Assembly (NCBI GenBank): GCA_963806185.1 | Contig: CAWDXE010000007.1 | Coordinates: 64,001 to 128,000 of the forward strand | Length of the DNA: 64,000 nt | From: an uncultured candidate division Zixibacteria bacterium | Lineage (GTDB): Bacteria; Zixibacteria; MSB-5A5; GN15; FEB-12 | Direction: 5' to 3' | Shown: positions 14,685 through 32,738 of the stretch, in pieces | How positions within the stretch are numbered: position 1 is the first letter of the stretch | How the letters are laid out: each line of letters begins with the position of its first letter | Program-made: the position numbers and the translations under genes | The notes under the pieces: generated by a model | Told to the model about the DNA's origin: nothing | What the model saw: only the letters and a program-made list of their open reading frames with translations | The model's database searches: none

Positions 14685-15199
14685 TGGAGAAGAAGACACG
14701 AGCGGACGTCGACCTGACTCGAATCATGATCAAGCCGATTTATTTCGGCATGGCCGTCAATATCCTAGCGCCGGCGGCCATCTTATTGATCTGCTACTTC
14801 CTGCAGAAGCAAAATCTGGAAAACCTGGTGGGTGATCTGGCGCGCCCGATGTTCTGGGTGTTTTGCGTGCTGGCGGCGGGCGTGTCCGGGTTTGTCTTGT
14901 GGTGGCGATCGAGGTTGCTGAAGGAACCGGCGGCACGATCAAAGGAGACGCTCGAAGAGGATTTGCGGGAAGCGCTGGGGCTTCGTCTCAGACCGGTACT
15001 GGTCCTGGTGGCGGCGATTTCGCTATTTGGCTACAGCTATTTCTTTCTGACCGGGCGGTTCCAGGAGGCGCTGATATTCGTGCTCTGGTCGTTCATACTG
15101 TTTCAGATCATCCGCCCGCGGTATGGGGCGGTGCAGACCTGGGCCGATTACCAGTTGGAGTTGGCGGAGCAGGGGAAGTTTCTCAAGCCCAAGCCGTAA
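14681..15199 (+). CDS. Hypothetical membrane protein
   Basis: About four hydrophobic segments; ATGA overlap with the previous gene. Confidence 0.65.
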   Translation: MMEKKTRADVDLTRIMIKPIYFGMAVNILAPAAILLICYFLQKQNLENLVGDLARPMFWVFCVLAAGVSGFVLWWRSRLLKEPAARSKETLEEDLREALGLRLRPVLVLVAAISLFGYSYFFLTGRFQEALIFVLWSFILFQIIRPRYGAVQTWADYQLELAEQGKFLKPKP

Positions 15200-15328
15200 T
15201 CGGCGATGGCGCGAGAGAGGGTGTGAGAATCTCGGGCGCCGGCCGATGTGTCGATAAACCGCTTTACAGCCGATGAAATTCGAGTACATTAGGCATTCGC
15301 CGAAAGCGGCGGGATGGTTCAGTCGATC

Positions 15329-15414
15329 GGAGAGGTGGCTGAGTGGTCGAAAGCGGCGGTCTCGAAAACCGTTATACCCTTCGGGTATCTAGGGTTCGAA
15401 TCCCTACCTCTCCG
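15329..15414 (+). tRNA. tRNA-Ser (CGA); island integration site
   Basis: GGAGAGGTGGCTGAGTGGTCGAAAGC...GCGGTCT-CGA-AAACCGT...GGGTTCGAATCCCTACCTCTCCG. Confidence 0.96.
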
Positions 15415-15417
15415 CAT
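15397..15417 (+). repeat. attL (21-bp direct repeat, tRNA 3' end)
   Basis: Identical to 31698-31718. Confidence 0.9.
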
Positions 15418-15716
15418 GTAACATATTGATATATAATTGGTTATGGCCATTTCTTGGCCGCCTGCCTTTTCGTACCCTCTCCGCTGTCAATATCTTTAAA
15501 GTTAGTCATTGTAGCAATGAGAACTACTCTAATTGCTGTTGATTCGATCCTCCATCCTTTTGCACTTCGAAGCTTTTAACAAACTATTGCACTGAATATC
15601 ACCAATCGAATAACGACACAAATGGCCCTCACGGCCTCCATCGATAAGACTTTGCCTGATTGTGATAAACTACTCTGATGCGACGGAACAACGGGTAAAT
15701 GCTCGCCAAAGATGTC

Positions 15717-15762
15717 TTGACACTCTGCCGATATGAATATATATTCGCCTAGGCGAATATAT
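15717..15762 (+). promoter_or_regulatory. Sigma70 promoter with overlapping palindromic operator (probable ArsR site)
   Basis: TTGACA (15717), 17 bp, TATATT (15740); perfect 24-bp palindrome ATATATTCGCCTAGGCGAATATAT at 15739-15762. Confidence 0.8.
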
Positions 15763-15817
15763 GAATATGTTGCGGTCTGGTTTACGGACTGAGTTAATAG
15801 AGTGAGAGAGTTTGAAA

Positions 15818-16414
15818 ATGAAAATGTCAGTGTATGATCCTGCTATGTGCTGCCCGACTGGTGTCTGTGGTCCGGCAGTCGATCCGAAACTGCCGCGCTT
15901 TGCAGCCGACCTCGAGTGGCTTGGAAATCAAGGCATAACCGTTGAACGGTTCAACCTGGCCCAGCAACCGGCGGCCTTCGCACAGAATCCGGTGGTAAAG
16001 GAAATGCTCGGTAAGCAGGGTAACGACTGCCTGCCGCTGATCTTGGTGGATGGCGCAGTCGTGTCCACGGTCAGTTATCCAACCCGAGAGAAACTCGCTG
16101 CCTTTGTCAATCTCTCGTATGCTCGGGTCCCCAGCATCTTCACCGATGCAGTTTCCGAATTGGTCGCCATTGGGGCCGCGATTGCCTCAAACTGCGAACC
16201 ATGTTTCCGCTTCCACTATGATAAGGCGCGGAAATTGGGTGTCTCTAAAGAGGATATGGCTCTGGCCGTCGCAATCGCTCAGGGCGTCAAAGAAACTCCG
16301 GCCAAGTCGATTCTTGAAATGGCTGATCGTTACCTCAAATCGAAAAGTACCGACGAGCCAATGACTCTTCCCATGGCAGAAGTCGCCTCCAAATCCAGCG
16401 GCAAATGCTGCTGA
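15818..16414 (+). CDS. arsD: Arsenic metallochaperone ArsD fused to a C-terminal AhpD/CMD-like domain
   Basis: YDPAMCCPTGVCG and RFNLAQQP (ArsD), then ELVAIGAAIASNCEPCFRFH (CMD CxxC); ends in CC. Confidence 0.88.
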   Translation: MKMSVYDPAMCCPTGVCGPAVDPKLPRFAADLEWLGNQGITVERFNLAQQPAAFAQNPVVKEMLGKQGNDCLPLILVDGAVVSTVSYPTREKLAAFVNLSYARVPSIFTDAVSELVAIGAAIASNCEPCFRFHYDKARKLGVSKEDMALAVAIAQGVKETPAKSILEMADRYLKSKSTDEPMTLPMAEVASKSSGKCC

Positions 16415-16427
16415 CCAAGGCTAGATT

Positions 16428-18227
16428 ATGTTGATACTAGATAACCCATCGAGGAATCTGTTCTTCACCGGCAAAGGGGGTGTGGGAAAGACATCGTTAG
16501 CCTGTGCCACGGCGGTGTCCCTTGCCGATCGCGGCAAGAGGGTGCTACTGGTAAGCACAGATCCCGCATCAAATCTCGATGAAGTCCTTAATGTGCACCT
16601 TTCCGCCGTCCCGACCGCGATACCGGACGCTTCCAACTTGTTCGCGCTCAATATCGATCCCGAAGCGGCTGCTCACGCCTATCGGGAGCGAATGGTCGGG
16701 CCGTATCGGGGCCTGCTTCCTGAAGCAGCCGTAGCCAGTATAGAAGAGCAGCTGTCTGGCGCCTGCACCACTGAGATTGCCGCGTTCGACGAATTCGCCA
16801 AACTACTGGGCGATCCCGCTGCGACGGCCGACTTCGACCACATCGTTTTCGATACCGCGCCGACCGGCCATACTCTGCGCTTACTGCAGTTGCCGGCAGC
16901 GTGGAGCGACTTCATTGAGTCGAGCGCGGGTGGGACCTCGTGCCTGGGTCCGCTATCCGGATTGCAGACGCAGCGTGAACTCTACGCGCAAACGGTCCGC
17001 GCATTGGCCGATCCAGCTATCACGACTCTGGTTCTCGTAAGCAGGCCGGAGCGAGCGGCTCTGCAGGAAGCGGACCGGACGCGACAGGAACTGTCGGCTG
17101 TCGGCGTTGGAAATCAGCACTTCATTCTCAATGGGACGTTCGTTGCCCAGGACCGCGAAGATCCAATTGCTTTGGCGCTTGAAGAACGTGGCAGACAAGC
17201 GGTGAACTCCATGCCGGCAGCTCTGGCACAACTTCCGCAGTCTCGAACACAGCTTCTTCCCTTTGGTCTGATTGGCGTACCTTCGTTACGGGCTCTGGTA
17301 AATGCGGACCCCCGAGAAACGACTCCAGCGGCACCTGCTCGACAAACTGCTGGAATCACTTTGCCGGCGCTTTCGACGCTGATTCGCCAATTGGAGACAA
17401 GCAAGCGCGGCGTGATAATGGTTATGGGCAAAGGGGGAGTAGGCAAGACCACTGTCGCGGCCGCTATTGCGGTAGCACTGGCCGATCATGGCCATACCGT
17501 TCACCTGACTACCACCGACCCGGCCGGACAGGTGCAGTCGGCACTGGCAAATAGTGTGGCGGGGCTGACCGTCAGCCGCATCGACCCCGTTGCCGAAACC
17601 GAGGCGTATCGTCTGGAAGTAATGCGCACTGCCGGTGGCAAGCTGGATGATCAGGGACTTCGTCTGTTAGAGGAAGAGCTACGCTCTCCCTGCACCGAAG
17701 AGATGGCGGTCTTTCGCGCGTTCGCGCAGAAGGTTGCCGAAGGGGCAAATGAATTTGTCGTGCTTGATACCGCTCCGACCGGTCACACGCTCCTGCTCCT
17801 GGATGCTACTGAGGCCTACCATCGGCAGGTCTCGCACACTATGAGTGATGTGCCGGATTCCGTTCGGCAGCTACTCCCGCGGCTGCGGGATGCGGAGTAC
17901 ACCAAGGTGCTCATCGTCACCTTGCCGGAAGCGACACCGGTCCATGAGGCCGCGCAACTCCAGAAGGATTTGAAACGAGCCGAAATCACGCCGCACGCCT
18001 GGGTGATCAACCAGTGTCTGACGCCGCATGCGGTCTCTGACCCCGTCTTGAAAACCAGGCAGGCGAGAGAAGGTCTGTTTATCGACGAGGTGACGCAGGT
18101 GCACAGCACAACGGCGTACATGATCCCATGGATGGAAGCAGGAGCAACTTTGGCAGACAGCCTGCGCAAAGTGGTGGCCGCCACGGCGGTAAGCGACAAA
18201 CCTATGGTCAGCAGACAAGGAAGTTAG
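16428..18227 (+). CDS. arsA: Arsenical pump-driving ATPase
   Basis: Two GKGGVGKT P-loops, two DTAPTGHT motifs, SGACT and SCLGP. Confidence 0.96.
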
Positions 18228-18232
18228 GAATT

Positions 18233-19306
18233 ATGGCGCAGCAGGAAGCAAAGCGATTGTCGTTTCTTGACCGCTACTTGACACTCTGGATTTTCCTGGG
18301 CATGGGAGCAGGCGTGGCACTGGGATGGCTGCTACCGCAGACCGAGCAGTTCATCAACCGCTTTCAGGTTGGCACGACCAATGTCCCGATCGCCATTGGT
18401 CTCATTCTGATGATGTATCCTCCGTTGGCGAAAGTGAAGTACGAGGAGCTTGGAGACGTATTCCGCAACACGAAAGTTCTCGGGCTCTCACTATTACAGA
18501 ATTGGGTGATCGGACCGATTCTCATGTTTTTCCTGGCGATTGCGTTTCTCTCGGGCTATCCCGAGTACATGGTCGGGTTGATCATGATCGGCCTGGCGCG
18601 CTGCATTGCCATGGTGATTGTCTGGAACGAATTGGCCAAGGGAGACACCGAGTATGCCGCTGGACTAGTGGCATTCAACTCGATTTTCCAGGTGCTCTTT
18701 TATTCAGTCTATGCCTGGGTGTTCATCACCGTGCTGCCGCCACTGTTCGGTCTCAGCGGCTCAGTAGTCGATGTCAGTATGAGGCAAATCGCCGAATCGG
18801 TATTCATTTATCTGGGGATTCCCTTTATCGCAGGTATGCTCACCCGCCTGATCGCGCTCAAGACCAAAGGACGGGAATGGTACGAGCAAAAGTTCATTCC
18901 GAAAATCAGTCCAATTACTTTGATCGCTCTGCTCTTTACAATCGTTGTGATGTTCAGTCTCAAAGGGAATCTGATCGTGCAAATCCCGCTTGACGTGGTG
19001 AGGATCGCGGTGCCACTCTTGATCTATTTTGTCGTCATGTTCCTGGTTAGTTTTTGGATGGGTCGCAAAGCGGGCGCAGACTACTCAAAAACGGCCACCC
19101 TGTCCTTCACGGCCGCCAGTAACAACTTCGAGCTGGCGATTGCTGTGGCCGTGGCGGTATTTGGCATTAACTCCGGCGCGGCCTTTGCGGCCGTTATTGG
19201 ACCGCTTGTCGAGGTGCCCGTTCTCATTGGATTGGTCAATGTGGCACTCTATTTCCAGCGAAAATACTTCGCACAACCGAACGCAGCTATGGAGGCGGCA
19301 CGATGA
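18233..19306 (+). CDS. acr3: ACR3-family arsenite efflux permease
   Basis: [39 protein letters not shown]. Confidence 0.96.
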
Positions 19307-19641
19307 AGACTCACGAAGCGTTTAAGGGGCTGTCTGATCCGACGCGGCTTCGCATCGTCGCGCTTCTGCTGGAGCAGGAACTCTGCGTGTGTGACTTGAT
19401 GGCCGTCTTGCAATTGCCTCAATCAACAGTGTCCCGTCATATGATACGCTTGAAAGCCGCGGGGCTGGTCGCGGATCGACGCGCGGGCAAATGGGTGCAC
19501 TATTGCCTGCTTGAAAATTCCCTGGTAAGCGATCTGCGGCGCCTGCTGCAGAACCATTTGGCCGGCGCTGAGCCCTATAAGAAAGACGCAACTGCCTTGC
19601 GACGATATGTCCGAAACGGGAACTGTGCTGAAAACTCGTGA
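19303..19641 (+). CDS. arsR: ArsR/SmtB transcriptional repressor (1)
   Basis: [26 protein letters not shown]. Confidence 0.92.
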
Positions 19642-19654
19642 GAAGATCGAACCG

Positions 19655-20095
19655 ATGAACGACAACAAGACACTGCGTATTTTGGTGCTGTGCACCGGCA
19701 ATTCCTGTCGATCGCAGATCGCCGAAGGGTACTTTCGTCACTATGGAGGAGACAGAGTGGAAGTCTTCTCTGCCGGGCTTGAGCCAAAGGGAGTCAACCC
19801 ACGGGCGATTCAGGTGATGAAGGAAGTTGGCATTGATATATCGCAGCATGCTTCAGACCACCTGTCAAAGTACATGGGCCAGTCATTTGATTACGTCATT
19901 ACTGTCTGCGATAACGCGGCGGCCAATTGCCCGGTGTTTCCGGGAGCCGGAACGAAACTGCACTGGCCGTTTGAAGATCCCGCCGACGCGACTGGCACGG
20001 AAGAACAGGTGTTGGCGGTTTTCCGTCAAATACGTGACGAAATTGGTGCAAAGGTGAAGAACTGGTTGAGGACAACCCAAGAGCTGGCCCGATAG
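19655..20095 (+). CDS. arsC: Arsenate reductase (thioredoxin-coupled, LMW-PTP fold)
   Basis: CTGNSCRS P-loop; TVCD...NCPVFP; HWPFEDP. Confidence 0.93.
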   Translation: MNDNKTLRILVLCTGNSCRSQIAEGYFRHYGGDRVEVFSAGLEPKGVNPRAIQVMKEVGIDISQHASDHLSKYMGQSFDYVITVCDNAAANCPVFPGAGTKLHWPFEDPADATGTEEQVLAVFRQIRDEIGAKVKNWLRTTQELAR

Positions 20096-20247
20096 CTTTT
20101 CGGGATATGGCTTCCTTGTCCGACCAAAGGCAATGCGCAGTTTGTGAGTAAATGAACAACAGAGGCGCGACGCCTGTTTATAAAATGGAGAAAGAAGTCG
20201 ATTACATGGGTCCACGATAGTAAGGTAACCACAGAATGGAGGAACAG

Positions 20248-20997
20248 ATGTTCAGGAAAATCAGCATTGTGACCGTTGCTCTGCTGCTTATGGCGGTAGC
20301 GGCCTTTGGCGCGGCACAACAACAACTGGAAGCGGCCGCAAAATCCGGCAACGTGGCCTTCGTCTTGGTGTATGACGCCACTGCTACCACTCTCGAGCAG
20401 GCGCGTCAGCTAACCGCGCAGGCGGTCGGCCGCGTGCCCGGATCGATAGCGATCGAAGTCAATCGCGGTGACGCCTCCGAAGCGGATTTTGTGAAGCGAT
20501 ATGGGCTGGCTACTGCTCCGGTACCGCTCATCTTAGTGAGCTCATCTGCCGGCGTCATCACCGGCGGTGTCATCGCCGCCCAGGCCAATGTTGACCAACT
20601 GGTGAAACTTGTACCATCACCCAAGAAAGCTGAAATCATCCAGGCGTTGTCGCAGGGAAATGCCGTGTTCATTACCGCGAGTCGGAAGAGCATGGCGACA
20701 GCAACAACTGTCAATAGCGCATGCGCCGCCGCGTGCCAACAGATGGCTGGGAAATCGGTACAAGTGACTGTTGATATGGATGATCCAAAAGAGGCCGGTT
20801 TCCTGACCGAGATGAAAGTCAATCTGCAATCAGCAGAACCGATCACGTTGGTAGCCAACGCTCAGGGGCAGATTGCCGGGATGTACACTGGGGCCATGCA
20901 GGTTACCGATCTCGTGACCGCCGCGACCAAGAAAGTTGGCGGCTGTTGCCCATCGACTGTTGCCAAACCGGACGCTTCATGCGCGCCTAAGAAGTAA
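20248..20997 (+). CDS. Secreted/periplasmic Cys-containing protein upstream of ABC exporter
   Basis: Signal peptide; CAAAC and C-terminal GGCCP...SC. Confidence 0.7.
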   Translation: MFRKISIVTVALLLMAVAAFGAAQQQLEAAAKSGNVAFVLVYDATATTLEQARQLTAQAVGRVPGSIAIEVNRGDASEADFVKRYGLATAPVPLILVSSSAGVITGGVIAAQANVDQLVKLVPSPKKAEIIQALSQGNAVFITASRKSMATATTVNSACAAACQQMAGKSVQVTVDMDDPKEAGFLTEMKVNLQSAEPITLVANAQGQIAGMYTGAMQVTDLVTAATKKVGGCCPSTVAKPDASCAPKK

Positions 20998-21008
20998 GGA
21001 AAGCCAAA

Positions 21009-22229
21009 ATGAAGCTTCAAACTATACTCTGGCGCGAGCTATGGCTGCGAAAGTCGCAGCTCGTGTCGGCCTTACTTGGAATCACGCTTGGCATCGCCGT
21101 AATAGTTGGCATTCAATCGGTTTCAGCGGTTTCCGAGACAGCGGTCAAGGTAAGTCTCGACAACTTGGGGGCTAATATCCTGGTGCTGCCTCAAGCCGCG
21201 TCGGTTGATGACTACTATTCGTCTGATATTGACGCACCGACGTTTTCCGAAGACTATGTAGAACGACTTGCCACGTCGATGTTGCCGGGTGTCGACAACC
21301 TTTCCCCAAAGCTAACCCGGCGCGTGAAAGTTGGCGATGTGCCAATTATCCTCACTGGTATTCTACCAGCTAACGAGCTGGCTGCGAAACCGATTTGGCA
21401 AACGGCCGGTTTGGTCGGGGACGGTCTGAATGCAGCGTGTGATCCTGGCACCACGGCTAATCAGTCGTTTGGATATCAGGACGAACGGCTGCAACGCAAG
21501 GCGGTCGACTCGCTGGCGACCACTGATGTGTTGGTCGGTAGCAGCGCTGCGCAGCGGTTGAATCTGCGCGAGGGACAGACCGTGACAATTGAAGGTAAGA
21601 CTTTTACTGTTGCCCGCGTTATCCCAGAGACCGGCACCATTGACGACAGTCGCGTGTATGCCCACCTGCACACGGTCCAGCAGCTTTTGGGGACTGGCCG
21701 GCAGGTCAGCGCCATCGAGATCATGGGGTGCTGCTCAGCTATCTCGGATGGACTCCTTGGCAAGCTCCGCAATATCTTGCCCGATACGCGGATTACGACG
21801 ATCAATCAGATTGTCAGCACGCAAATCAGGACCAATCAGCTCATGAGCAAGATCTCCATGGTCTTTCTGGTGATCATCATCATTGTCGGAGCCATAACGA
21901 TTGGCAACTACATGTGGGCGAATGTCGAAGAGCGACGTCGCGAGATCGGCATTCTGATCACCATCGGTACGAAGCGTTCGGCCATCTACCGTCTCTTCTT
22001 GTCAAAAGCAGTGTTCCTGGGTGTAATTGGCGGCATTGGCGGTTTCATCGTTGGGACCGGGGCTGCAATGATTCTTGGACCGCAACTAGCTGGGCTACAT
22101 GTTTCGCCGATGCCACTTTATTTGCTGTTATCAGTGGTCGTAGCAGTGTCGATAGCATTGCTTGGCAGTATTCTTCCGGTTTACCGGGCAGCGAGATTTG
22201 ACCCAGCTGTCATCATGCAGGAGGTGTGA
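21009..22229 (+). CDS. ABC transporter permease, MacB/FtsX family
   Basis: N-terminal TM, large periplasmic domain (contains GCCS), ERRREIGIL, three C-terminal TMs, PVYRAARFDP. Confidence 0.9.
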   Translation: MKLQTILWRELWLRKSQLVSALLGITLGIAVIVGIQSVSAVSETAVKVSLDNLGANILVLPQAASVDDYYSSDIDAPTFSEDYVERLATSMLPGVDNLSPKLTRRVKVGDVPIILTGILPANELAAKPIWQTAGLVGDGLNAACDPGTTANQSFGYQDERLQRKAVDSLATTDVLVGSSAAQRLNLREGQTVTIEGKTFTVARVIPETGTIDDSRVYAHLHTVQQLLGTGRQVSAIEIMGCCSAISDGLLGKLRNILPDTRITTINQIVSTQIRTNQLMSKISMVFLVIIIIVGAITIGNYMWANVEERRREIGILITIGTKRSAIYRLFLSKAVFLGVIGGIGGFIVGTGAAMILGPQLAGLHVSPMPLYLLLSVVVAVSIALLGSILPVYRAARFDPAVIMQEV

Positions 22230-22898
22230 GTGATGTTTGCCATTCACAACTTGAGCAAGGTCTACACCTCTCAACACGGCACGGTTCGGGCACTGGATGA
22301 CATATCGCTGACCGTCGAGAAAGGCAGTTTTGTTGCCGTGACCGGCGGGTCCGGTTCGGGCAAGACGACCATGTTGTTGACGCTTGGCGGTCTCATTCGA
22401 CCGACGAGCGGAACGGTGTCGTTCTCCGGCAAGACCATTTACACTATGTCCGAGCCAGAGCTTGCCGAGTATCGCAATCGCAAGATTGGTTTTGTACTAC
22501 AGACATTCAATCTGATCCCATACCTTACAGCGTTGGAAAACGTCATGCTTCCGATGATATTTTCTTCTAACGGCAACGGCACCGCGCAAGCCCAGGCGGA
22601 AGCATTGCTGGAGAAAGTAGGCCTAAAAGATCGCGAAGAACATCTGCCGAGAGAGCTGTCCGTGGGGCAACAGCAGCGGGTGGCTATTGCGCGAGCTCTC
22701 GCCAATAGTCCGGAGGTAATTCTTGCTGACGAGCCAACGGGCAATCTGGATCCCAGTCTGTCACTCGAAGTGCTGAAGATTCTCAAACGGCTCAATGAAG
22801 AAGAGGGACGAACGGTTATCATGGTGACTCACAGCCCGGAAGCGGCGACATTCGGGAATCGCCAGGTTCGCCTAAAAGACGGTAAGGTACACGACTGA
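22230..22898 (+). CDS. ABC transporter ATP-binding protein, LolD/MacB family
   Basis: GGSGSGKT, LSVGQQQRVAIARAL, ADEPTGNLD. Confidence 0.95.
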   Translation: MMFAIHNLSKVYTSQHGTVRALDDISLTVEKGSFVAVTGGSGSGKTTMLLTLGGLIRPTSGTVSFSGKTIYTMSEPELAEYRNRKIGFVLQTFNLIPYLTALENVMLPMIFSSNGNGTAQAQAEALLEKVGLKDREEHLPRELSVGQQQRVAIARALANSPEVILADEPTGNLDPSLSLEVLKILKRLNEEEGRTVIMVTHSPEAATFGNRQVRLKDGKVHD

Positions 22899-22899
22899 T

Positions 22900-23836
22900 A
22901 TGGGGAAACACGACAACAAGCGCGACCGGCACGGCAAAAAGCACTCCGGCAAGCGCAGCCACAGGCAATCGGTAGGTAGCGGGACCTCCCGCCATTGGGT
23001 GGGATGGGCAGCGCTCGCAGTTGTCCTGGTCGCCGGCGTAGGCATCGCATGGACGCTTTTCAAAGAAGAAAGTCCGAGAATTACTGCGTCTACTCCGGTG
23101 ACCAAGCTTCCGGAGTCAGTGTTACCAAAGAATCTGGAGACCAGGCCCGCTGAGTCGAAGCCAGTACCGCCACCGGCTGCGCCGCGTCTCGACATTCCGG
23201 AACCGGAATTTGATTTCGGCTTCGTGCCACAGAATGCGAAGATAAGTCACGTGTTCTGGCTACACTCGGCCGGCACCGACACACTCAAGATCATCAAGGT
23301 CAACCCCGGCTGAGGCTGCACCCAAGCGCCCTTGGAAAAGGACGCACTGGCTGTCGGCGACAGCACTACCCTTGAGATTATCTTCAGTACCGGAAGCTAC
23401 AGTAACCAGGTGAGCAAAGCGCCGTCGATATTGACCAACGAAGCGCAGGGGGCCAAAAACGTCACCATCAAGGCCAACATCGTCACAAAGCCGGACTCGA
23501 CTTATCCGATCGTCATTCAACCGCCCAAGATCGAATTTGCGAGCCGGCGACAGCACCGAAACGATGGAGTTTACGATCACGAACAAGTCGGACGGAGCGC
23601 TAATTCCGAGAATTGTTAGCGCACCGCGCCGTTTTGTCAGTATAAACTTGCCGCAGTCTATTCCGGCGGGCGAATCTACCATAGGGAGTGTTACACTCAA
23701 GAAGGCCGGACTTAAGACGGGTTTCGAGAAGTCAGTGACCGTCCAATTAAACGATCAGGCGAAGAGCCGCTTTACCATTCCGATCAAGCGATCGGTGGTT
23801 GGCCAAGCTGTTGTTGTTCCGGCCGGAGGGCATTGA
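22900..23836 (+). CDS. Membrane-anchored DUF1573-like (Ig-fold) probable selenoprotein; UGA at 23311-23313; +1 frameshift near 23537
   Basis: FDFGFV...HVFWL...LKIIKVNPG-TGA-GCTQAP aligns with the family's C-G-C-T motif; the frame continues through ORF 23332-23619 and then 23537-23836. Confidence 0.75.
23326..23345 (+). promoter_or_regulatory. Candidate bacterial SECIS hairpin
   Basis: GCGCCCTT-GGAA-AAGGACGC (7 bp, one mismatch); G-first apical loop 20 nt after the UGA. Confidence 0.55.
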
Positions 23837-23920
23837 GTTTCGTGACGGCCCAGGACACATAGCGCATTTGCATCATTTGAGGATAGTCGAACAGTCTACC
23901 CAAATAACAGGAGGATTCCA

Positions 23921-24379
23921 GTGAAACGATTTATTATAACGATGGCCCTTTTCCTTATGGCCATTACAATGGCCTGTAACAAATCATCGGAAACTCCTGC
24001 TCGCCAAGGTGCGGGCACTAATTCGGGCGCAGCACAGCCTGCCACTGCATCTCCCGATTTGTCCAAGGCACCACCTGTCACCGTGGCTAATCCTCCTGCG
24101 GCTACACCACAAACTCCCTCTGGGTATGCTACTGCTCCGGGCATGAATCCTCCGCACGGTCAACCGAGTCATCGCTGTGATATTCCCGTTGGGGCACCAC
24201 TTAATTCGCCGCCAGGTACACAGTCGACACCGGTCGTTCCTTCACAGCCCAATGCCACTGTCCAGACTCCGCCAACTACGACGGCTCCGGGCATGAATCC
24301 ACCGCATGGACAGCCGAATCATCGCTGTGATATTCCCGTAGGAGCGCCCCTCAGCTCAGCCCCTTCGCAGCCGAAGTAA
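23921..24379 (+). CDS. Pro-rich lipoprotein with two 24-aa His/Cys repeats
   Basis: Lipobox TMAC; TAPGMNPPHGQP(S/N)HRCDIPVGAPL twice (24131-24202, 24281-24352); GGAGG RBS. Confidence 0.8.
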   Translation: MKRFIITMALFLMAITMACNKSSETPARQGAGTNSGAAQPATASPDLSKAPPVTVANPPAATPQTPSGYATAPGMNPPHGQPSHRCDIPVGAPLNSPPGTQSTPVVPSQPNATVQTPPTTTAPGMNPPHGQPNHRCDIPVGAPLSSAPSQPK

Positions 24380-24437
24380 TTGTGCTGGCTACAGTTAAGA
24401 GGAGAGCGAAAATTCGTGAGAAATTCTGTTGATCTTG

Positions 24438-24461
24438 TTGGTAATTTGGCGATATTACCAA
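24438..24461 (+). promoter_or_regulatory. Inverted repeat upstream of second arsR (probable operator)
   Basis: TTGGTAAT-N8-ATTACCAA; a related TTTGGC-N6-GCCAAA site lies at 24835-24852. Confidence 0.55.
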
Positions 24462-24491
24462 GTATAAGGAAATAGCGAAGGAATTCAAAGT

Positions 24492-24818
24492 ATGGATAAT
24501 AAGACTAAAGCACATTTCGAGGCCAAGGCCAGAATTATTAAGGCGATGGCGCATCCGACGAGGCTCTTTATTGTGGATGAGCTGTCGCGAAAGGAACGGT
24601 GTGTATGCGATCTGACCGAAATGATCGGCGCGGATACATCGACCGTGTCCAAACATCTGTCCATTCTAAAAGCGGCCGGGATAGTGTCCGATGACAAGCG
24701 CGGTCTGCAGGTCTTCTACTCCCTGAAGGTGCCGTGCATCTTGAATTTCTTCGGATGTGTTTCGCAGGTGCAGAAGCTGTCGGCGAAGGAGCAGGTCGCG
24801 CTGGTCGTACGAAAGTAG
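24492..24818 (+). CDS. arsR: ArsR/SmtB transcriptional repressor (2)
   Basis: KAMAHPTRL, ERCVCDL, STVSKHLSILK. Confidence 0.9.
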   Translation: MDNKTKAHFEAKARIIKAMAHPTRLFIVDELSRKERCVCDLTEMIGADTSTVSKHLSILKAAGIVSDDKRGLQVFYSLKVPCILNFFGCVSQVQKLSAKEQVALVVRK

Positions 24819-24878
24819 TTTTTTTGGGTCCATCTTTGGCTGTTTGGCCAAATAGACATATGAAAATAGGCGTTTGAT

Positions 24879-26180
24879 ATGAAATGGAAAGCAGAGTGGA
24901 AGCCCCTGACCCTAATAATTATCATATTCCTGGTCAGTTTCTATCTGCCGGTCGGCAAACCGCGTTTTGACAATGCGGTTACTGAATCGTTACAACTGGT
25001 AAAATGGTACGCGCAAGAGCATGTTCTACTCTGCCTGATACCGGCGTTCTTCATTGCCGGAGCGATTGGAGTCTTTGTCAGCCAGGCTTCAGTCATGCGC
25101 TACCTGGGAGCCAAAGCCAACAAGGTTCTCGCCTACGGTGTGGCGTCGATCTCTGGAACCATTCTGGCAGTATGCTCATGCACGGTGCTCCCCCTGTTTG
25201 CGGGTATCTATCGGATGGGCGCAGGGCTCGGCCCGGCCAGTGCCTTTCTCTACTCCGGACCGGCAATCAACGTGCTGGCCATATTTCTGACCGCGCGGAT
25301 TCTCGGGATCGAAATGGGTGTGGCCCGCGCAGTCGGCGCGGTCGTGTTCAGCGTAATCGTTGGGCTCATCATGCATTTCATCTACCGCAAAGAGGAAACG
25401 GCCAAAGCTGACGCTCAAATGGCTCTGCCCGATCCACCGCCGACGCGCCCGCTCTGGCAGACGATACTCTATTTTGCTTCAATGATAGCCATACTCGTCT
25501 TCGCCAACTGGGGCAAGTCAAGCGAACCAGTCGGCATCTGGAATGCAATTTACGAACTCAAATGGTATCTGACTGCCTTGTCAGCTGCGGCCCTCGGATT
25601 GATGCTGGCTACCTGGTTTAACGTCACCTGGTGGAAAATTGGCGCGGTCGCAGTTCCGGTCGCGATCCTAGGCCTGGTCTTTCGCGAATATCCGTTGATT
25701 CCGTTCGCTGCGGGGTTTGTAGGGCTCTCCATCATTACCAGCACCGATGACGGCGAGATGGGGAGCTGGTTCGAACAGACCTGGGGATTCGCCAAGCAGA
25801 TTCTGCCGCTACTTCTCTTTGGCGTTCTCGTCGCAGGACTTCTCTTGGGCAGGCCCGGACACGAGGGAATCATTCCTTCCGAGTGGATCAGTCGCTCGGT
25901 GGGCGGCAACTCACTCTGGGCGAATCTCTTTGCCTCGGTAGCAGGCGCCTTTATGTATTTCGCCACGTTGACAGAGATCCCGATTCTGCAAGGTCTCCTG
26001 GGGAGCGGCATGGGTAAGGGTCCGGCGTTGGCGCTTTTGCTGGCCGGACCGGCGCTTTCTCTTCCGAGCATGCTAGTACTGCGGAGCATTATGGGCCTTA
26101 GAAAGACGGCAGTGTTTGTGAGTATCGTGGTAGTCATGGCTACTATCACGGGAATGACGTACGGCTATTTCTTTGGATAG
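24879..26180 (+). CDS. Permease, DUF318/ArsP-like
   Basis: Polytopic; AVCSCTVLPLF, FLYSGPAIN, YFATLTEIP, GPALSLPS. Confidence 0.82.
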   Translation: MKWKAEWKPLTLIIIIFLVSFYLPVGKPRFDNAVTESLQLVKWYAQEHVLLCLIPAFFIAGAIGVFVSQASVMRYLGAKANKVLAYGVASISGTILAVCSCTVLPLFAGIYRMGAGLGPASAFLYSGPAINVLAIFLTARILGIEMGVARAVGAVVFSVIVGLIMHFIYRKEETAKADAQMALPDPPPTRPLWQTILYFASMIAILVFANWGKSSEPVGIWNAIYELKWYLTALSAAALGLMLATWFNVTWWKIGAVAVPVAILGLVFREYPLIPFAAGFVGLSIITSTDDGEMGSWFEQTWGFAKQILPLLLFGVLVAGLLLGRPGHEGIIPSEWISRSVGGNSLWANLFASVAGAFMYFATLTEIPILQGLLGSGMGKGPALALLLAGPALSLPSMLVLRSIMGLRKTAVFVSIVVVMATITGMTYGYFFG

Positions 26181-26190
26181 GAGATACACA

Positions 26191-26424
26191 ATGAAACTGA
26201 TTCAAATCCTAGGCACGGGCTGTCCCAAGTGCAAGAAGCTCGAAGAGCAGACGCGCGAAGCGGCCAAGGCCATCGGCCTTGAGTGTGAGATCCTCAAGGT
26301 GACCGATATCGAGGCGATCATGCGCATGGGCGTGATGATGACCCCGGGGCTGGCAATCGACGGGCAGGTTGTTCTGTCTGGGAAAGTACCGTCGGTTGAT
26401 GAACTCAAAAAGATTCTGGCCTGA
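26191..26424 (+). CDS. Small redox-active disulfide protein (thioredoxin-like)
   Basis: IQILGTGCPKC, GVMMTPGLAIDG. Confidence 0.88.
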   Translation: MKLIQILGTGCPKCKKLEEQTREAAKAIGLECEILKVTDIEAIMRMGVMMTPGLAIDGQVVLSGKVPSVDELKKILA

Positions 26425-26437
26425 AAGGGAACCTCAG

Positions 26438-26929
26438 ATGAATAAGGCAAAAGTCGCAGCGATCCTCGTAGGCATCGCAGCAATGTGGGTGGGTGGATAC
26501 CTGTTGGCCAATGCGGGTAACGGAACAGCAGATTCGCCGTCCACCGTTTCTCCTACCGCCGCCACGACCGATAGCGTTACCGCTATACCCCACAAAGTCG
26601 TTGCCTACTATTTCCACGGCAATGTCCGCTGTGTGACCTGTCGAAAGATCGAAGCATACACCGGCGAAGCGATTGACAGCGGTTTCGCGGCTGAACTCAA
26701 ATCCGGATTGCTTGAGTGGCATGCGATAAACACGGATTCATCGCAAAACGAGCATTATTTGGAGGACTACCAATTATTCACCAAGTCGGTAATTCTCTCA
26801 GATCTGCACCATGGTAAGCAGACCCGCTGGAAAAACCTCGACAAGATCTGGACGCTGACGGGAAACAAGTCCGACTTCATGAAATACATCCGGGATGAAG
26901 TCAGGATCATGCTGGATTCAACCAAGTAA
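26438..26929 (+). CDS. ArsF-like thioredoxin-fold exported protein (1)
   Basis: N-terminal TM/signal; YYFHGNVRCVTCRKIE; WKNLDKIW. Confidence 0.75.
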   Translation: MNKAKVAAILVGIAAMWVGGYLLANAGNGTADSPSTVSPTAATTDSVTAIPHKVVAYYFHGNVRCVTCRKIEAYTGEAIDSGFAAELKSGLLEWHAINTDSSQNEHYLEDYQLFTKSVILSDLHHGKQTRWKNLDKIWTLTGNKSDFMKYIRDEVRIMLDSTK

Positions 26930-26943
26930 AGGAACGACAGACA

Positions 26944-27414
26944 ATGACCCCTCGCAAAATCATCACGTTTGTTCTGCTCCTTCTGGTTGGAGTGAGTATT
27001 GTCGTCTTCGTGGCGCGACAAACAGGTCTTATTTCCGCGGACCTGGTATCAATCGGTGCATCAGCGGATGCGCCCCGACACAAGGTCATCGCCTATTATT
27101 TCCACGGCACGGTGCGGTGCGAAACCTGCCTGAATATCGAGCACTACACCGACGAAGCACTCAAGACCTACTTTGCCGATGACCTGGCCGATGGCCGCTT
27201 GGAATGGCGCGTGATCAACCGCGAAGTACCACCCAATGAACACTTTGTACAGGACTATGGACTGTATTCTCAGGCTCTGATCATCATCGACTCAATACCG
27301 GGACAGAAAGCCGAATACAAAAACCTCGAGGCCATGTGGGATTACGCCCACGACAAACCGGCGTTTATGGCATGGGTGCGTGGTGAAGTCGATCAGTACC
27401 TGAGGAGGCTGTAG
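26944..27414 (+). CDS. ArsF-like thioredoxin-fold exported protein (2)
   Basis: YYFHGTVRCETCLNIE; paralog of the preceding gene. Confidence 0.75.
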   Translation: MTPRKIITFVLLLLVGVSIVVFVARQTGLISADLVSIGASADAPRHKVIAYYFHGTVRCETCLNIEHYTDEALKTYFADDLADGRLEWRVINREVPPNEHFVQDYGLYSQALIIIDSIPGQKAEYKNLEAMWDYAHDKPAFMAWVRGEVDQYLRRL

Positions 27415-28103
27415 TGGAGTCACTCTACGTTGCGGCTCTTTCGGCGATCTGGCTGGGCATACTGACTTCCATCAGCCCCTGTCCGCTCGCCACCAACATT
27501 GCGGCCGTTTCCTATATAGGCAAGCATGTGGCCAGTGGCCGGCATGCGGTGTGGTCCGGACTTCTCTATGTACTGGGCCGTCTCGTGACCTATGTGGCGG
27601 TGGGCGCGATCGTGACCGCTGGTGTTCTCTCCATTCCGGGCGTGTCGAATTTCCTGCAGAAGTACATGAACAGCTTGCTTGGCCCGGTCCTTATCCTGGT
27701 TGGACTCGTCTTGCTGAACTGGTTACCGATCAATATACCGGGCCTTACCCCCAGCGATAAAATGCAGGAACGCGCCTCACACGGGAGTCTTTGGGGTGCA
27801 TGTGCCCTTGGTGCCATCTTTGCGCTGTCGTTTTGCCCTGTGTCGGCGGCTCTGTTCTTCGGAAGTCTGATTCCGCTATCGGTTCAGCACCACTCATACT
27901 TACTCTTGCCATCGCTATACGGCTTCGGTACTGGATTGCCGGTGCTGGTGGTGGGCATTATGCTGGCCTATAGTGCTAAATCGGTGGGAAGGCTGTTTAC
28001 CGGTATCCAGCGCTTTGAGAGTTGGGTCCGCGTCATGACAGCGGTGATCTTTATTATCATCGGGATCTATATGATCCTGCGATACGTTTTTTACCTATTC
28101 TAA
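27414..28103 (+). CDS. ArsG-like / DsbD-CcdA family membrane protein
   Basis: LTSISPCPLATNIAA and ALSFCPVSA conserved Cys-Pro motifs. Confidence 0.8.
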   Translation: MESLYVAALSAIWLGILTSISPCPLATNIAAVSYIGKHVASGRHAVWSGLLYVLGRLVTYVAVGAIVTAGVLSIPGVSNFLQKYMNSLLGPVLILVGLVLLNWLPINIPGLTPSDKMQERASHGSLWGACALGAIFALSFCPVSAALFFGSLIPLSVQHHSYLLLPSLYGFGTGLPVLVVGIMLAYSAKSVGRLFTGIQRFESWVRVMTAVIFIIIGIYMILRYVFYLF

Positions 28104-28172
28104 TCATGGGCCGGTGCCGGGCAAGAGCTCGACGCCGCCACTTACGCAATTCAAACGCATGCAAATGTTCGA

Positions 28173-28215
28173 TTGACACTCGTGCGAGAATCCATATATT
28201 TCGATATATGTCGAA
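28173..28215 (+). promoter_or_regulatory. Sigma70 promoter and operator for the arsR-hgcAB operon (likely leaderless)
   Basis: TTGACA (28173), 16 bp, TATATT (28195); TTCGA-N6-TCGAA (28200-28215) overlaps the ATG at 28208. Confidence 0.65.
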
Positions 28216-28573
28216 CTATAGTACTAAGACCCTCAAGCGTGTTTCGCAACAGTTTGCCGCCCTGTCTAATCCCAACCGAGCCGCAATCTTTGCGCGACTG
28301 GCCGGTTGTTGTTGTGGAACGGCCGAGACCTGCAGACATGACGCCATGCGCACGTGCGTAGGAGATTTGGGAAAAGATCTCAGCATCGCCGCTTCGACGG
28401 TGTCTCACCATATCAAAGAGCTCCATCGGGCTGGTCTGATTAAGCTCGAACGATGTGGCAGAACGGTCAGATGTTGTGTTGATACAAAGACCGTGAAGGA
28501 AATGGCTGGATTTCTAGATGGCGCAACCGCAGCGGGACGACAAGCGCCGACGAACAAGCCGAAACGAGCCTGA
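28208..28573 (+). CDS. Cys-rich ArsR-family regulator (3) heading the hgcAB operon
   Basis: FAALSNPNR, GCCCG, CVGDL, ASTVSHHIKEL, RCC; eight Cys. Confidence 0.85.
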   Translation: MSNYSTKTLKRVSQQFAALSNPNRAAIFARLAGCCCGTAETCRHDAMRTCVGDLGKDLSIAASTVSHHIKELHRAGLIKLERCGRTVRCCVDTKTVKEMAGFLDGATAAGRQAPTNKPKRA

Positions 28574-28589
28574 CAATCGGAGGATAGAC

Positions 28590-29186
28590 GTGGACGATAT
28601 CAACAAAGACAATCTACCCGGCTGCTGTGAGGGTGGCCAGTGCTGCTCACCAACGCCAGGTGGCGATACCCGCAAACCTGACCGTTGGAAATCTCTGATG
28701 TTCTCGGGAGTGATTTTGCTGGCATGTGCAGTGGCAGCATACTCTCTGTTCTGGCGAAGTCCGGATGCCGCGACCTCTGCCTGTTGCCCGCCGGGATCAG
28801 CGGCCGCGGTAGCTTGTGGCTCGTCGGCGGTCATTCCGGTCTTCGACCACTCCATGGCTCCGGCGGGTTTGTCGCTGTATCTCTTGTTATCGGCGACCGA
28901 TTCGCTTAGCCAGCAGCAGTTCGCGGTAATAAGTGAAGTTCGAGGGGCCGTGGAGTCAAAGGGGTCGCGGTTGGAACTTGAGACGTTGAGGCCCAGCGAC
29001 GGCTTCTTTCCGGCAATGGTCAGTGGTCATGGTATCACTTCCTTTCCGGCATTTCTGGTGTTCGGACAGCGCGACAGTTTGACCCTGAGTCTCACGAGTT
29101 TTCGAAGCGATACGATATTGAGCGTCTTTGTCCTGCCAGCTGAATCGTCGGAGGTGTCAACTACGTCCGAAACTAACCCTCAATAG
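28590..29186 (+). CDS. Membrane-anchored protein with three Cys-Cys pairs
   Basis: GGAGG RBS + GTG; GCCEGGQCC, one TM, ACCPPG. Confidence 0.7.
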   Translation: MDDINKDNLPGCCEGGQCCSPTPGGDTRKPDRWKSLMFSGVILLACAVAAYSLFWRSPDAATSACCPPGSAAAVACGSSAVIPVFDHSMAPAGLSLYLLLSATDSLSQQQFAVISEVRGAVESKGSRLELETLRPSDGFFPAMVSGHGITSFPAFLVFGQRDSLTLSLTSFRSDTILSVFVLPAESSEVSTTSETNPQ

Positions 29187-29189
29187 CTG

Positions 29190-29895
29190 GTGAATGCGAT
29201 GGATTGGATAGAGCAAGTACTGCGATCCCCGGAATTCAGCATGGCTGCCCTGCCGGCGGCCCTCGTGCTGGGCCTGCTAACGGCAGTAACGTCGTGCTGC
29301 AATTTTGGCATCATCGCAGCTGTGGTAGGATATGCCGGAAGTCGCGACGAGCAGTATCATCGCCGCGACGCCGTCGTGACGGCCATTTCCTTCATGGTCG
29401 GCACGGTCGTGGCCCTCTCCGTGTTGGGGCTTCTCATCGGCCATGTCAGCGGACTAGCCGGAACCTCATTCAAACGCTACAGCACACTGATCATGGGGTT
29501 CGCTGTAATAATTGCCGGCCTGTGCCGCACTGAAGCTGCTGCCATTTCGATTGCCCTCCGTTAACTGGTCAAAAGTGAAGCGTCCCGGCGGTCGTTTCGG
29601 GTCGATTGTTTTCGGATTAGTCATCGGAACTGCGAGTATCGCGTGCACTGCAGCCTGCTGCGGCCCGCTGGTTCTCGTAGTCTTAGGCATGACCGCAATA
29701 GCGGGTCAGGCACTGCAGGGGGCAGTGATACTGGGGCTCTTTGCTATTGGCTACGGTCTTCCTCTGGCTGCGCTGATGCTTGGCGTTGGCCTCGGACGAA
29801 CCTCTGCGATTGCCCAGAAGTTGACTAAACCGATTCGCGTCGTTGCCGGATCGGGACTGCTTTTTGTGGGGTTCTGGTTACTCGCGACTATGTGA
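29190..29895 (+). CDS. CcdA/DsbD-like thiol-transfer membrane protein (+1 frameshift near 29522)
   Basis: ORFs 29190-29564 and 29512-29895; TSCCN and CTAACCGP at the positions of the two CcdA Cys motifs; FAIGYGLP. Confidence 0.72.
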
Positions 29896-29907
29896 GGATG
29901 CGCGGAT

Positions 29908-31062
29908 ATGCTTGACACACCAGACCGTGGTTTGCCGCCCTGTTCGCCTGATTGCTGCTCGCCGGTGCAGATCACTACTCTTCAAAGCCATCCCCGGGTG
30001 GCGATACGCATGCCCATTCCCAAAGATCCGTGGGTCATCGGAACGGTTGCATCGCCATTCGGGGAAATCCCTCAGGTTGATGCGAAGTTGCAGTGGCTCG
30101 ATACTCTTGGCTCCTGGAAGGCTCGATGGGGCATCGGGCGTTCGAATTACAGCGTCCAGCCGCGCCTCTATGCCGTCGGCAATCCCGCCAAAACATCACC
30201 GGTGTTCGTTACGGCCAACTATAAGATGAGTTTTGACCGTCTCCGGTCGAACCTGGCTGATATCGACGGCTGGATCCTGGTTCTGGATACCAAGGGCATC
30301 AACGTATGGTGCGCGGCTGGTAAGGGCACCTTTGGCACCGAGGAACTTATCCGTCGAGTTGAGGTAGAGGGTCTGAAGCAGATTGTGTCTCATCGCCGCC
30401 TGATTCTCCCGCAGTTGGGTGCCACCGGCGTCAGCGCGCACCACACGCGCGAGCGCAGCGGTTTCCACGTTTTCTACGGCCCCGTCCGGGCGAAGGATAT
30501 TCCAGAGTTCATGCAAGCCAGGATGAAGGCGACCGAAGCCATGCGGAAAATCACCTTTACGCTGGCCGAACGGGCAGTCCTGATCCCGATCGAGTTTGTA
30601 AACAATCTTAAATACGCGCTCTTCGCAGCTGCGTGCCTGCTGCTACTCACCGGCGTTGGGTTGGATATCTACTCTCTGGATCGAGTGAAGGATTTCGGCA
30701 TCACCAATGCCGGCTTGGTACTTCTGTCAACTTTGTGCGGTGCATTGTTGCCCGCGCTGCTTTTGCCGTGGTTACCGGGGCGGGCGTTTTCGTTCAAGGG
30801 AGCTGCTGCCGGGCTACTGCCAGCAATCGGCATCGCCGCTCTGATGTGGTGGCATCCGGAGACTTTTCGCAATCGGGTCAGCGGCACTAGCTGGATGTTC
30901 ATTTTCCCAGCGGTGTCGAGCTTTCTAGGGATGAACTTCACGGGTAGTTCGACTTATACGTCGTTGTCAGGCGTCAAGAAAGAGATGCGCGTTGCCTTGC
31001 CAGCACAGATTTCAGTCGCTGTGTGCGGACTCGTATTGTGGCTAGTAGGATTGTTCATATGA
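29908..31062 (+). CDS. hgcA: Mercury methylation corrinoid protein HgcA
   Basis: TANYKMSFD, diagnostic cap helix GINVWCAAGKGTFG, LPQLGA, C-terminal TMs, NFTGSSTYTSLSGVKKEM; hgcB adjacent. Confidence 0.97.
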   Translation: MLDTPDRGLPPCSPDCCSPVQITTLQSHPRVAIRMPIPKDPWVIGTVASPFGEIPQVDAKLQWLDTLGSWKARWGIGRSNYSVQPRLYAVGNPAKTSPVFVTANYKMSFDRLRSNLADIDGWILVLDTKGINVWCAAGKGTFGTEELIRRVEVEGLKQIVSHRRLILPQLGATGVSAHHTRERSGFHVFYGPVRAKDIPEFMQARMKATEAMRKITFTLAERAVLIPIEFVNNLKYALFAAACLLLLTGVGLDIYSLDRVKDFGITNAGLVLLSTLCGALLPALLLPWLPGRAFSFKGAAAGLLPAIGIAALMWWHPETFRNRVSGTSWMFIFPAVSSFLGMNFTGSSTYTSLSGVKKEMRVALPAQISVAVCGLVLWLVGLFI

Positions 31063-31355
31063 CGACCAAGTATCTCTCGGGCGTTGTAACGCTCGAGCTT
31101 AATTCGGATAAGTGCAATGGCTGCGGTATGTGCCTACAGGTTTGTCCGCACGCCGTCTTTGCGCTCGAGAATAAGCGGGCGAAGATTGTCGATCTCGATG
31201 CATGTATGGAATGTGGGGCTTGTGCTTTGAATTGCCCAGAAGGCGCGATTAGCGTTCGGTCCGGAGTTGGATGTGCAGCGGGCATTTTGACCGGAGCTTT
31301 ACGAGGAACTGAACCCACTTGCGGTTGCGGAGATGACTCGGGGGGTTGCTGCTAA
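31059..31355 (+). CDS. hgcB: Mercury methylation ferredoxin HgcB
   Basis: CNGCGMCLQVCP and CMECGACALNCP 2x[4Fe-4S], GVGCA, C-terminal CC; ATGA overlap with hgcA. Confidence 0.96.
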   Translation: MTTKYLSGVVTLELNSDKCNGCGMCLQVCPHAVFALENKRAKIVDLDACMECGACALNCPEGAISVRSGVGCAAGILTGALRGTEPTCGCGDDSGGCC

Positions 31356-31697
31356 CATATGGCCTCAAGTGTGCACCGTAGTATTTCAACAGACATGTTG
31401 TATGATGTTGAAGTCACTTGTATAGCGGTTCAGCTAAAGTTGCATATCACAAAGCTATTTGCCAGAGTTGGGGCCGGAGCTTGCGAATATCTGTTGAATG
31501 CCTCGAAGCTCTTAAAACGGAATGCGCAATCCATGATCGGATTGTGGCGTTTGGGACCAATTGGGGACCGTGGGACTTCAAAACAGTCAATACGCACTAC
31601 GAATCATTCAAAACTATTTGATGACGCAATCAATTGGTGGAACTCACCTTACGGCGTAATTGACACAATGACAATCATTTATGGGAAACATACAGTA

Positions 31698-31718
31698 CGA
31701 ATCCCTACCTCTCCGCAT
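31698..31718 (+). repeat. attR (21-bp copy of tRNA-Ser 3' end)
   Basis: CGAATCCCTACCTCTCCGCAT identical to 15397-15417. Confidence 0.9.
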
Positions 31719-31898
31719 TTTTCTTACTAAATCATTACAATTGAAGTTGTAGACGATGTGCGCTATGTTGGAGATAATGGGCGGGCAGGTCGGAAGACTT
31801 GCTGCGCACGGAACCCACCGCTGGCCTTGGGCCAGCGAAGATAAGAGAAAGACGCGGGCCACCGGCCGTCGTATTCGGGAAATAAGGTGTGCTACCGG

Positions 31899-32330: not shown

Positions 32331-32738
32331 GAAATACATATAACTCTCAACAATAGTACAATTGAAACTCAGAAATTGCCGTAGAATCCTCGAATCAAAT
32401 AGTATCTGTCGATCGACTGGTGTCCCACGGCAAGCCGTGGGCCACCGAAAAGAAGAGAAAGACACGGGCTGCCCACCGCATAGGCGGTGGGGTACGGAGA
32501 ACAGCCGGCTGAAAACCGCGCTTGACGAAGCCCTATCGCTCCACATTTATTAGCTCAACGCTATCCTAAACTCCTTATAGAACGGCAACTGTATTGACGG
32601 CATCAAGGCCGATCGATTTGTGAGTGCAACGACGTAAGGATGGACCCCCGACGCAACCGGGGGACGGGAGTAATCATGATGAGCAATACCAACAGGCGGC
32701 GTACCTTGGGTTCAAACGCTCTTGGCTCGAGGCAGGCC

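Follow-up and report, generated by a model that had tools for sequence, protein, structure and literature searches.

The mercury-methylation genes hgcA and hgcB have a patchy distribution that has been explained in different ways. In the available portions of the papers concerned, one argues for transfer and saw hgcA neither on viral contigs nor close to known insertion sequences (IS) or transposases (PMC7438021), one favours mainly vertical descent with loss (PMC10083202), and one describes control of hgcAB by ArsR and asks whether arsenic has influenced the transfer (10.1101/2022.10.17.512643). We ask here whether an hgcAB pair that adjoins a set of arsenic-resistance (ars) genes in an uncultured Zixibacteria bacterium lies in a mobile element, and of which kind. 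The locus is in a 64,000-nucleotide window (C7:64001-128000, where C7 is a contig of 1.04 Mb) of an eight-contig, 3.65-Mb assembly that is 82% complete; positions without a contig name refer to this window. Comparisons were made with 160 genomes of the order, host included, and hgcA was counted in 107 genomes of the family; none is congeneric with the host. The 3' end of tRNA-Ser(CGA) occurs on both sides of a 16.3-kb block, called the island below. The island is probably an integrase-less element resembling the cis-mobilizable elements (CIMEs), inserted by a tyrosine integrase that targets tRNA genes, and it would have given the host a second hgcAB from a related donor.

The preliminary description of this DNA, made from its letters alone, had reported a perfect 21-bp repeat of the tRNA end that brackets arsD to hgcB, and had taken it for the signature of attachment (att) sites. 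The repeat and its position were confirmed, and the att reading was supported. The window holds exactly two copies of the repeat, which no shuffled sequence reproduced (0 of 100), and the left copy is the end of the tRNA gene. The first open reading frame (ORF) inside is arsD, starting at 15812, and the last annotated gene is hgcB, ending at 31355. With up to three mismatches allowed, the 21-mer has a single further match in the genome, at the end of tRNA-Ser(GCT) on contig C4. The boundary features are as follows.

15329..15415, + strand: tRNA-Ser(CGA), the proposed integration target, closing a conserved tadA-hypothetical-hypothetical-tRNA block (the upstream block is kept in family loci)
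15397..15417, + strand: putative attL, the left 21-bp core, beginning in the T loop (exact repeat)
31553..31569, + strand: tandem arm-type repeat GGGACCAATTGGGGACC, 145 bp ahead of the right core (motif searches in the host and order genomes)
31698..31718, + strand: putative attR, the right 21-bp core (exact repeat)

The repeat is most likely an att site, because the arm stands at a fixed spacing and integrases are found at the same tRNA in relatives. The arm precedes the right core and is missing at the tRNA itself. The host genome contains one more match to it, again at a spacing of 145 bp, ahead of 18 bp that repeat, 33 kb behind tRNA-Leu(CAG), the end of that gene. Similar arms stand before each of two repeats of the tRNA-Ser(TGA) end, and 19 bp of the tRNA-Asp end recur 24 kb from that tRNA. 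All these host cores (Ser-CGA, Leu-CAG, Ser-TGA and Asp) start at the same T-loop position, where tyrosine integrases are known to cross over. With at most one mismatch, the arm was found in 22 of the 160 order genomes and its reversed control in one. A piece of tRNA lies within 300 bp of the arm at 17 of 27 sites (15 of 25 when the host genome is left out), compared with 10 of 200 random windows, and at 14 of these 17 sites it is 132-146 bp downstream.

Twelve order genomes, chosen by integrase match, carry a tyrosine integrase directly after tRNA-Ser(CGA), mostly behind a similar tandem TGTGACCA repeat; this tRNA is a frequent integrase target in the order. The integrase clade occurs in 66 of the 160 genomes and is absent from the host. 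The elements of these twelve genomes (G061 and 11 others) share with the island the target tRNA and similar tandem arms; they encode their integrase about 100 bp behind the tRNA, whereas the island has arsD there. Of 20 family loci chosen by this tRNA instead, 18 were compared by their ORFs: one begins with an integrase and the others vary between genera.

The host has further tRNA-anchored, repeat-bounded regions, at C7:4635-37433 (Leu-CAG), at C7:121978-160310 (two in tandem at Ser-TGA, starting at window position 57978) and at C1:631830-656061 (Asp-GTC). Arms stand at the fixed spacing in the Leu-CAG and both Ser-TGA regions, and no integrase ORF was seen in any of them, Asp-GTC included. 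Three att sites of the transfer-messenger RNA (tmRNA) type are nested in the tRNA-Leu(CAG) island (C7:4896-4928, 23942-24022 and 33071-33176), where one att array seems to be carried inside another; the host tmRNA gene is on C1, far from these nested sites, and has its own tmRNA-type att site 1.9 kb downstream. At 15472-15483, about 60 bp inside the left border of the island, there is a 10-bp echo of the tRNA-Ser(CGA) 3' end, and comparable echoes occur at about the same distance behind tRNA-Ser(TGA) in the host and behind tRNA-Ser(CGA) in the integrase-bearing elements of G098 and G051. Elsewhere in the order (L189-L215), the 5' half of tRNA-Leu(TAA) comes next after many arm sites, in opposite orientation, as in elements that restore the 5' end of a tRNA; no integrase was found within 1.5 kb of these sites with the one query used.

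Every annotated gene in the 16.3 kb between the cores is on the + strand, and there is no family match in the outermost ~390 bp on the left and ~340 bp on the right. Genes were named from Pfam and NCBIfam profiles, with 27 island ORFs scanned.

15717..15762, + strand: sigma-70-like promoter (11/12) overlapped by a perfect 24-bp palindrome at 15739-15762 (sequence match)
15812..16414, + strand: arsD fused to a CMD/AhpD-like domain (PF06953 and PF02627; NF033727 over cut-off)
16428..18227, + strand: arsA, arsenical pump-driving ATPase (TIGR04291, 787.8 bits, cut-off 650)
18233..19306, + strand: acr3, arsenite efflux permease (TIGR00832 over cut-off; 81.5% identical to a second copy on C1)
19303..19641, + strand: ArsR/SmtB repressor 1 (NF033788)
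19655..20095, + strand: arsC-like gene, thioredoxin type (TIGR02691, 165.7 bits, just below the cut-off of 174.3)
20236..22898, + strand: hypothetical exported protein, MacB/FtsX-like permease and ABC ATPase (Pfam; same order next to acr3-arsR in G030)
22900..23836, + strand: DUF1573 protein with an in-frame TGA at 23311-23313 and a later frame break (domain match and paralogue comparison)
23921..24379, + strand: hypothetical Pro-rich lipoprotein with a 71-bp internal repeat (sequence)
24492..28103, + strand: arsR2, arsP-family permease, arsE, arsF, arsF and arsG, an organoarsenical module (PF03773; TIGR00412, NF040494 twice and NF040495 over cut-off)
28173..28215, + strand: second strong promoter (11/12) with a 16-bp palindrome, ahead of the hgc cassette (sequence match)
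28208..29895, + strand: arsR3, Cys-rich hypothetical gene and ArsG/CcdA-like membrane gene, the last in two frames here and whole on C1 (profiles and C1 comparison)
29908..31062, + strand: hgcA, with NVWCAAGK cap helix, N-terminal CC and membrane domain (NF040863, 449 bits, cut-off 275)
31059..31355, + strand: hgcB, with two [4Fe-4S] clusters, CMECGA motif and C-terminal CC (NF040864, 128.7 bits, cut-off 99)

ArsR, ArsD, ArsA, an arsenite permease and an ArsC (9 bits under its cut-off) make up an operon of the arsRDA-acr3-arsC type, and ArsE, ArsF and ArsG with an ArsP-family permease make up an arsEFG/arsP module. The preliminary description had spoken of a full arsenic-resistance arsenal; the ars set and hgcAB are indeed there, but arsM, arsH, arsI, arsB and the genes of arsenate or arsenite respiration had no match among the scanned ORFs, so that wording was too strong. 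The two best promoter matches are those ahead of arsD and ahead of the last arsR, each lying on a palindrome, and the palindrome at 15739-15762 is likely to be an ArsR operator. Since the last arsR has a promoter and palindrome of its own, the hgc cassette is likely to be transcribed separately from the genes before it. As a detail of the first gene, the CMD/AhpD-like domain fused to ArsD has a CxxC motif, and the protein ends in CC.

Contig C1 carries a second intact cassette with the same order, arsR-hypothetical-arsG-like-hgcA-hgcB. Its HgcA is 69% and its HgcB 82% identical to the island copies, and both pairs have the corrinoid and membrane domains, the adjacent ferredoxin and the motifs of HgcA and HgcB; the N-terminal CU/CC of HgcA is described in the accessible part of 10.1101/2022.07.06.499078. 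No att end, core or arm was found around the C1 cassette, which lies 13 kb past the right end of the tRNA-Asp island. C1 also has a second acr3-arsR-arsC in the same gene order, and the nucleotide identity of the paralogues on island and C1 is 68-72%. No second copy of arsD, arsA, arsP or arsEFG was found in the host genome.

The relatives of the cargo lie mostly within the phylum. The HgcA tree, built as a quick version (one motif-less locus and three duplicates dropped) and as a careful 37-row version whose bootstrap is unsettled, places the island copy as sister to that of G059 (support 100/93) with the C1 copy next, within a fully supported clade of the same phylum; the two host copies thus fall in one three-member clade. 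The island HgcA is 72% identical to that of G059 and 69% to the C1 copy; island Acr3 is 87-88% identical to those of G022 and G080, and homologues of ArsP are present in 95 of the 159 other order genomes, up to 90% identical. The gene order from acr3 to arsG is also found in G030 and G159. ArsA exceeded its cut-off in one of the 160 order genomes, the host, and the best database matches of the island ArsA are 76-79% identical. From these ties, and from an ArsA that exceeds its cut-off in no other order genome, we infer that the island is a within-phylum composite with foreign arsDA that added a second hgcAB.

We looked for att ends at other hgcAB loci. In G042, a genome of the same family whose HgcA is 54% identical and on another branch, an arsR-hypothetical-arsG-like-hgcA-hgcB cassette is flanked by two copies of a perfect 49-bp repeat. 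This repeat holds a tmRNA-type att arm and is inside a row of degenerate tmRNA-end cores, which begins behind the tmRNA gene on another contig, the two parts being presumably continuous over the contig break. Neither an integrase nor an ars resistance gene was found at this cassette. At a metagenome locus, L321 (HgcA 67% identical), a G042-type arm and a degenerate core follow hgcB at ~130-200 bp, with one end only on the contig. G042 is thus a second case of hgcAB between att ends and L321 a partial third. Among 80 hgcAB loci of named genomes (up to ~10 kb per side), eight include a gene for a tRNA or tmRNA, whose end is not repeated at any of them, and among 80 metagenome loci, 16 of which reach 15 kb, the arm was found in L321 only. 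These two negatives are weak because the arm motifs are lineage-specific. In G032 an apparent arm near hgcAB was rejected, as it lies inside a coding gene; the setting of that cassette is chromosomal and common to G029.

The island contains no integrase, resolvase or serine recombinase, a point that the preliminary description had passed over. Neither a Pfam search of the genome nor tblastn with two integrases from relatives found an integrase remnant, and no relaxase, coupling, mating-pair, transposase or IS family matched any of the scanned island ORFs. Having no integrase of its own, the island falls outside the integrative and conjugative elements (ICEs), integrative and mobilizable elements (IMEs) and prophages; with the putative attL and attR kept and no integration or transfer genes matched, it resembles the CIMEs.

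The island block is missing behind tRNA-Ser(CGA) in 20 of 20 family loci, chosen by that tRNA; they have neither hgcA nor a second core copy, and two of them have acr3-arsR-arsC in the opposite orientation. However, no junction of the tRNA with the sequence right of 31718 was found. A right-flank protein was not found beside tRNA-Ser(CGA) in the family, except for two weak, stop-containing C-terminal matches, and synteny returns near DUF1385-prfA, 21-27 kb from the tRNA in three g44 genomes.

Several observations weigh against an insertion of the block as one element. No empty site was found among the comparison genomes, and none of the 20 family loci has the genes right of 31718 behind the tRNA either; the right-side genes being variable too, the variable region does not end at the right core. 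One public sequencing run held 5% of the left-flank words, the pieces that mapped were conserved ones from other organisms, and no junction across the island was seen; an exact search with the right core and its trailer matched no metagenome stretch. In the whole genome, at its 82% completeness, we found no recombinase of these kinds beyond XerD and a XerC-like gene next to topA/hslVU. The tandem arm was not found at the left end with up to three mismatches, and as the left end has no such arm, the two ends may derive from different elements. Composition, proposed earlier as a check on the borders, counts in favour of insertion, but the signal is mild: the island has a GC content of 54.5%, compared with 56.5 +- 1.0, and ranks 6 of 218 windows by tetranucleotide distance. 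Although the search of other genomes did turn up the tmRNA array of G042 and, in part, L321, 17 of 19 hgcAB copies in 18 order genomes have no att ends in the 2.8-60 kb examined. Finally, the approximately unbiased (AU) test that rejects a tree joining both host HgcA copies (p-AU 0.035) used a quick 14-row tree and a group named after the tree had been seen.

The most serious alternative is that an older element left the att ends behind and that the ars and hgc modules were inserted between them later and separately, so that the block never moved as a unit. The missing integrase and the left end without an arm would fit this, as would signs that the modules lead separate lives: G030 has acr3 to arsG and arsR-hgcAB on separate contigs, arsR-arsP-arsEFG stands by itself in G063, G060 and G069, ArsP homologues are widespread in the order, and the hgc cassette has its own promoter. 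Yet the cargo fills the gap with less than 400 bp to spare at either end, its genes all share one strand, the two cores have not diverged, the scanned ORFs include no transposase or IS family, and the G042 cassette is bracketed just as tightly by att arms. We therefore consider this history unlikely, while giving it real weight. A much smaller probability attaches to the idea that the island genes are old duplicates of the hgc and acr3 clusters on C1, relocated within the genome. Same-order paralogues of the hgc cassette and of acr3-arsR-arsC do exist on C1, and both HgcA copies are in one three-member clade; but nucleotide identity reaches only 68-72%, HgcA is nearer to G059 and Acr3 to G022 and G080 than to the C1 copies, arsD, arsA, arsP and arsEFG are single-copy, and the AU test weakens the idea further, which makes it very improbable.

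That the right core is a chance match or an assembly error is scarcely credible. The assembly does contain indel errors, since PGK (1910-3122) and RNase E (49422-50958) are each broken into two frames, and the split in the ArsG-like gene ahead of hgcA may be another; but no shuffle reproduced the repeat, the contig is 1.04 Mb long, and the arm before the right copy, absent at the tRNA, recurs at a fixed spacing in other genomes. The preliminary description had gone furthest in proposing that the host acquired mercury methylation through the island and that arsenic selection could spread the trait. The rarity of hgcA in the family (10 of 107 genomes), the presence of arsDA in the host alone within the order, the real physical linkage and the induction of hgcAB by arsenic in P. 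mercurii ND132, given in the available text of 10.1101/2022.10.17.512643, speak for it. The second intact hgcAB on C1, with no att end found nearby, speaks against it: given that cassette, the host probably did not gain methylation through the island. It also has a resident acr3-arsR-arsC, and the att-bounded cassette of G042 carries no ars resistance gene, so that we regard this strong version as very doubtful. The tree did set the island HgcA beside that of G059 and not beside the C1 copy, but the grouping stays within the same phylum.

Under the reading we prefer, insertion of a CIME-like element, a circular form would have recombined in the T loop of tRNA-Ser(CGA), restoring the tRNA and leaving the displaced end at 31698, with an integrase that was supplied by a helper element or deleted after insertion. 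The cargo may have been built in a Zixibacteria donor from modules of the lineage (acr3-arsR-arsC, ABC exporter, arsP-arsEFG and arsR-hgcAB), with arsDA joining from outside the order. On the basis of family knowledge, ArsC is predicted to reduce As(V), ArsD to pass As(III) to ArsA and Acr3 to export As(III), ArsP and ArsEFG would handle organoarsenicals, and HgcA and HgcB would methylate Hg(II) under an ArsR-type repressor and promoter of their own. The island would now be stranded, and could move again only with a cognate integrase and both ends functional.

A wider proposal, which we offer tentatively and think possible rather than probable, is that the ends of tRNA and tmRNA genes in Zixibacteria house a pool of att cassettes that lack integrases and are moved by helper tyrosine integrases, and that this pool captured arsR-hgcAB at least twice from different HgcA lineages; hgcAB would then still be mobile, hitchhiking here on arsenic resistance. 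If true, hgcAB transfer would for the first time have a named vehicle, and the failure of earlier scans to see transposases or phages near hgcA would be accounted for.

As a type, the element is ordinary. According to the available part of PMC5704250, CIMEs keep attL and attR, have lost integration and transfer genes, and lie at tRNA ends, often in tandem. The island resembles them in both retained att ends, the absence of such genes and its place at a tRNA end; it differs, as far as that text goes, in that the host genome shows no adjacent ICE or IME and no element integrase, that it is known from sequence alone, and that it carries ars genes and hgcAB in an uncultured phylum. The Dehalococcoides ssrA islands, in the accessible portion of PMC3146451, carry rdhA/vcrABC and depend on the serine integrase DsiB, and 15 have no integration module. 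Shared features are a repeat of ~20 bp from the end of a tRNA-like gene, tandem islands and an environmentally important metabolic gene. DsiB acts at ssrA there, whereas tyrosine integrases at tRNA-Ser are the likely helpers here, and the near-identical cargo seen across several of those hosts was not seen for the hgc island.

The gene association is known too. In the parts available of PMC7438021 and 10.1101/2022.10.17.512643, hgcAB adjoins acr3, arsC, arsM and arsR (the first source) and stands, as here, behind an ArsR-like gene near ars genes; neither part reports att ends, and the island adds arsDA, arsP and arsEFG. The literature thus already contains both the adjacency of hgcAB to ars genes and, posed as an open question, the idea that arsenic may drive its transfer. 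The available text of PMC5255934 predicts five genomic islands and does not place hgcAB within them. The preliminary description was not aware of hgcAB being commonly shown in an att-flanked island, and we found no report of it in a literature search that left out most subscription papers and all supplements, whose neighbourhood tables may hold cases. The island is a real feature of a known element kind with a known gene association, and its cargo is apparently unreported for such an element. It suggests a physical means by which hgcAB could spread laterally, and its defined ends make transfer testable by an empty site or a circle, and by scanning for tRNA-end repeats instead of integrases. 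One genome with two divergent intact hgcAB cassettes also bears on counts of methylators taken from hgcA abundance.

Some smaller features complete the picture of the locus. The TGA in the DUF1573 gene sits in a PG-U-GC motif and the domain match spans it; a paralogue on C7 has a TGA at the same place, and the host has a tRNA-Sec (10419-10514). By its sequence, this gene likely encodes one selenoprotein. The sequence trailing the right core is similar to the trailer of tRNA-Ser(GCT); it may be the native one or mark where another relic begins. In G069 (contig C12, near 11422-17755, L301-L302), arsR-arsP-arsE-arsF-arsG adjoins tRNA-Leu(TAG) and is followed by a motif resembling the arm, possibly as an att-bounded ars module. 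Just right of the island, short palindromic repeats resembling repetitive extragenic palindromes stand at 31810-31870 and 32420-32500, and recur at many sites in the genome.

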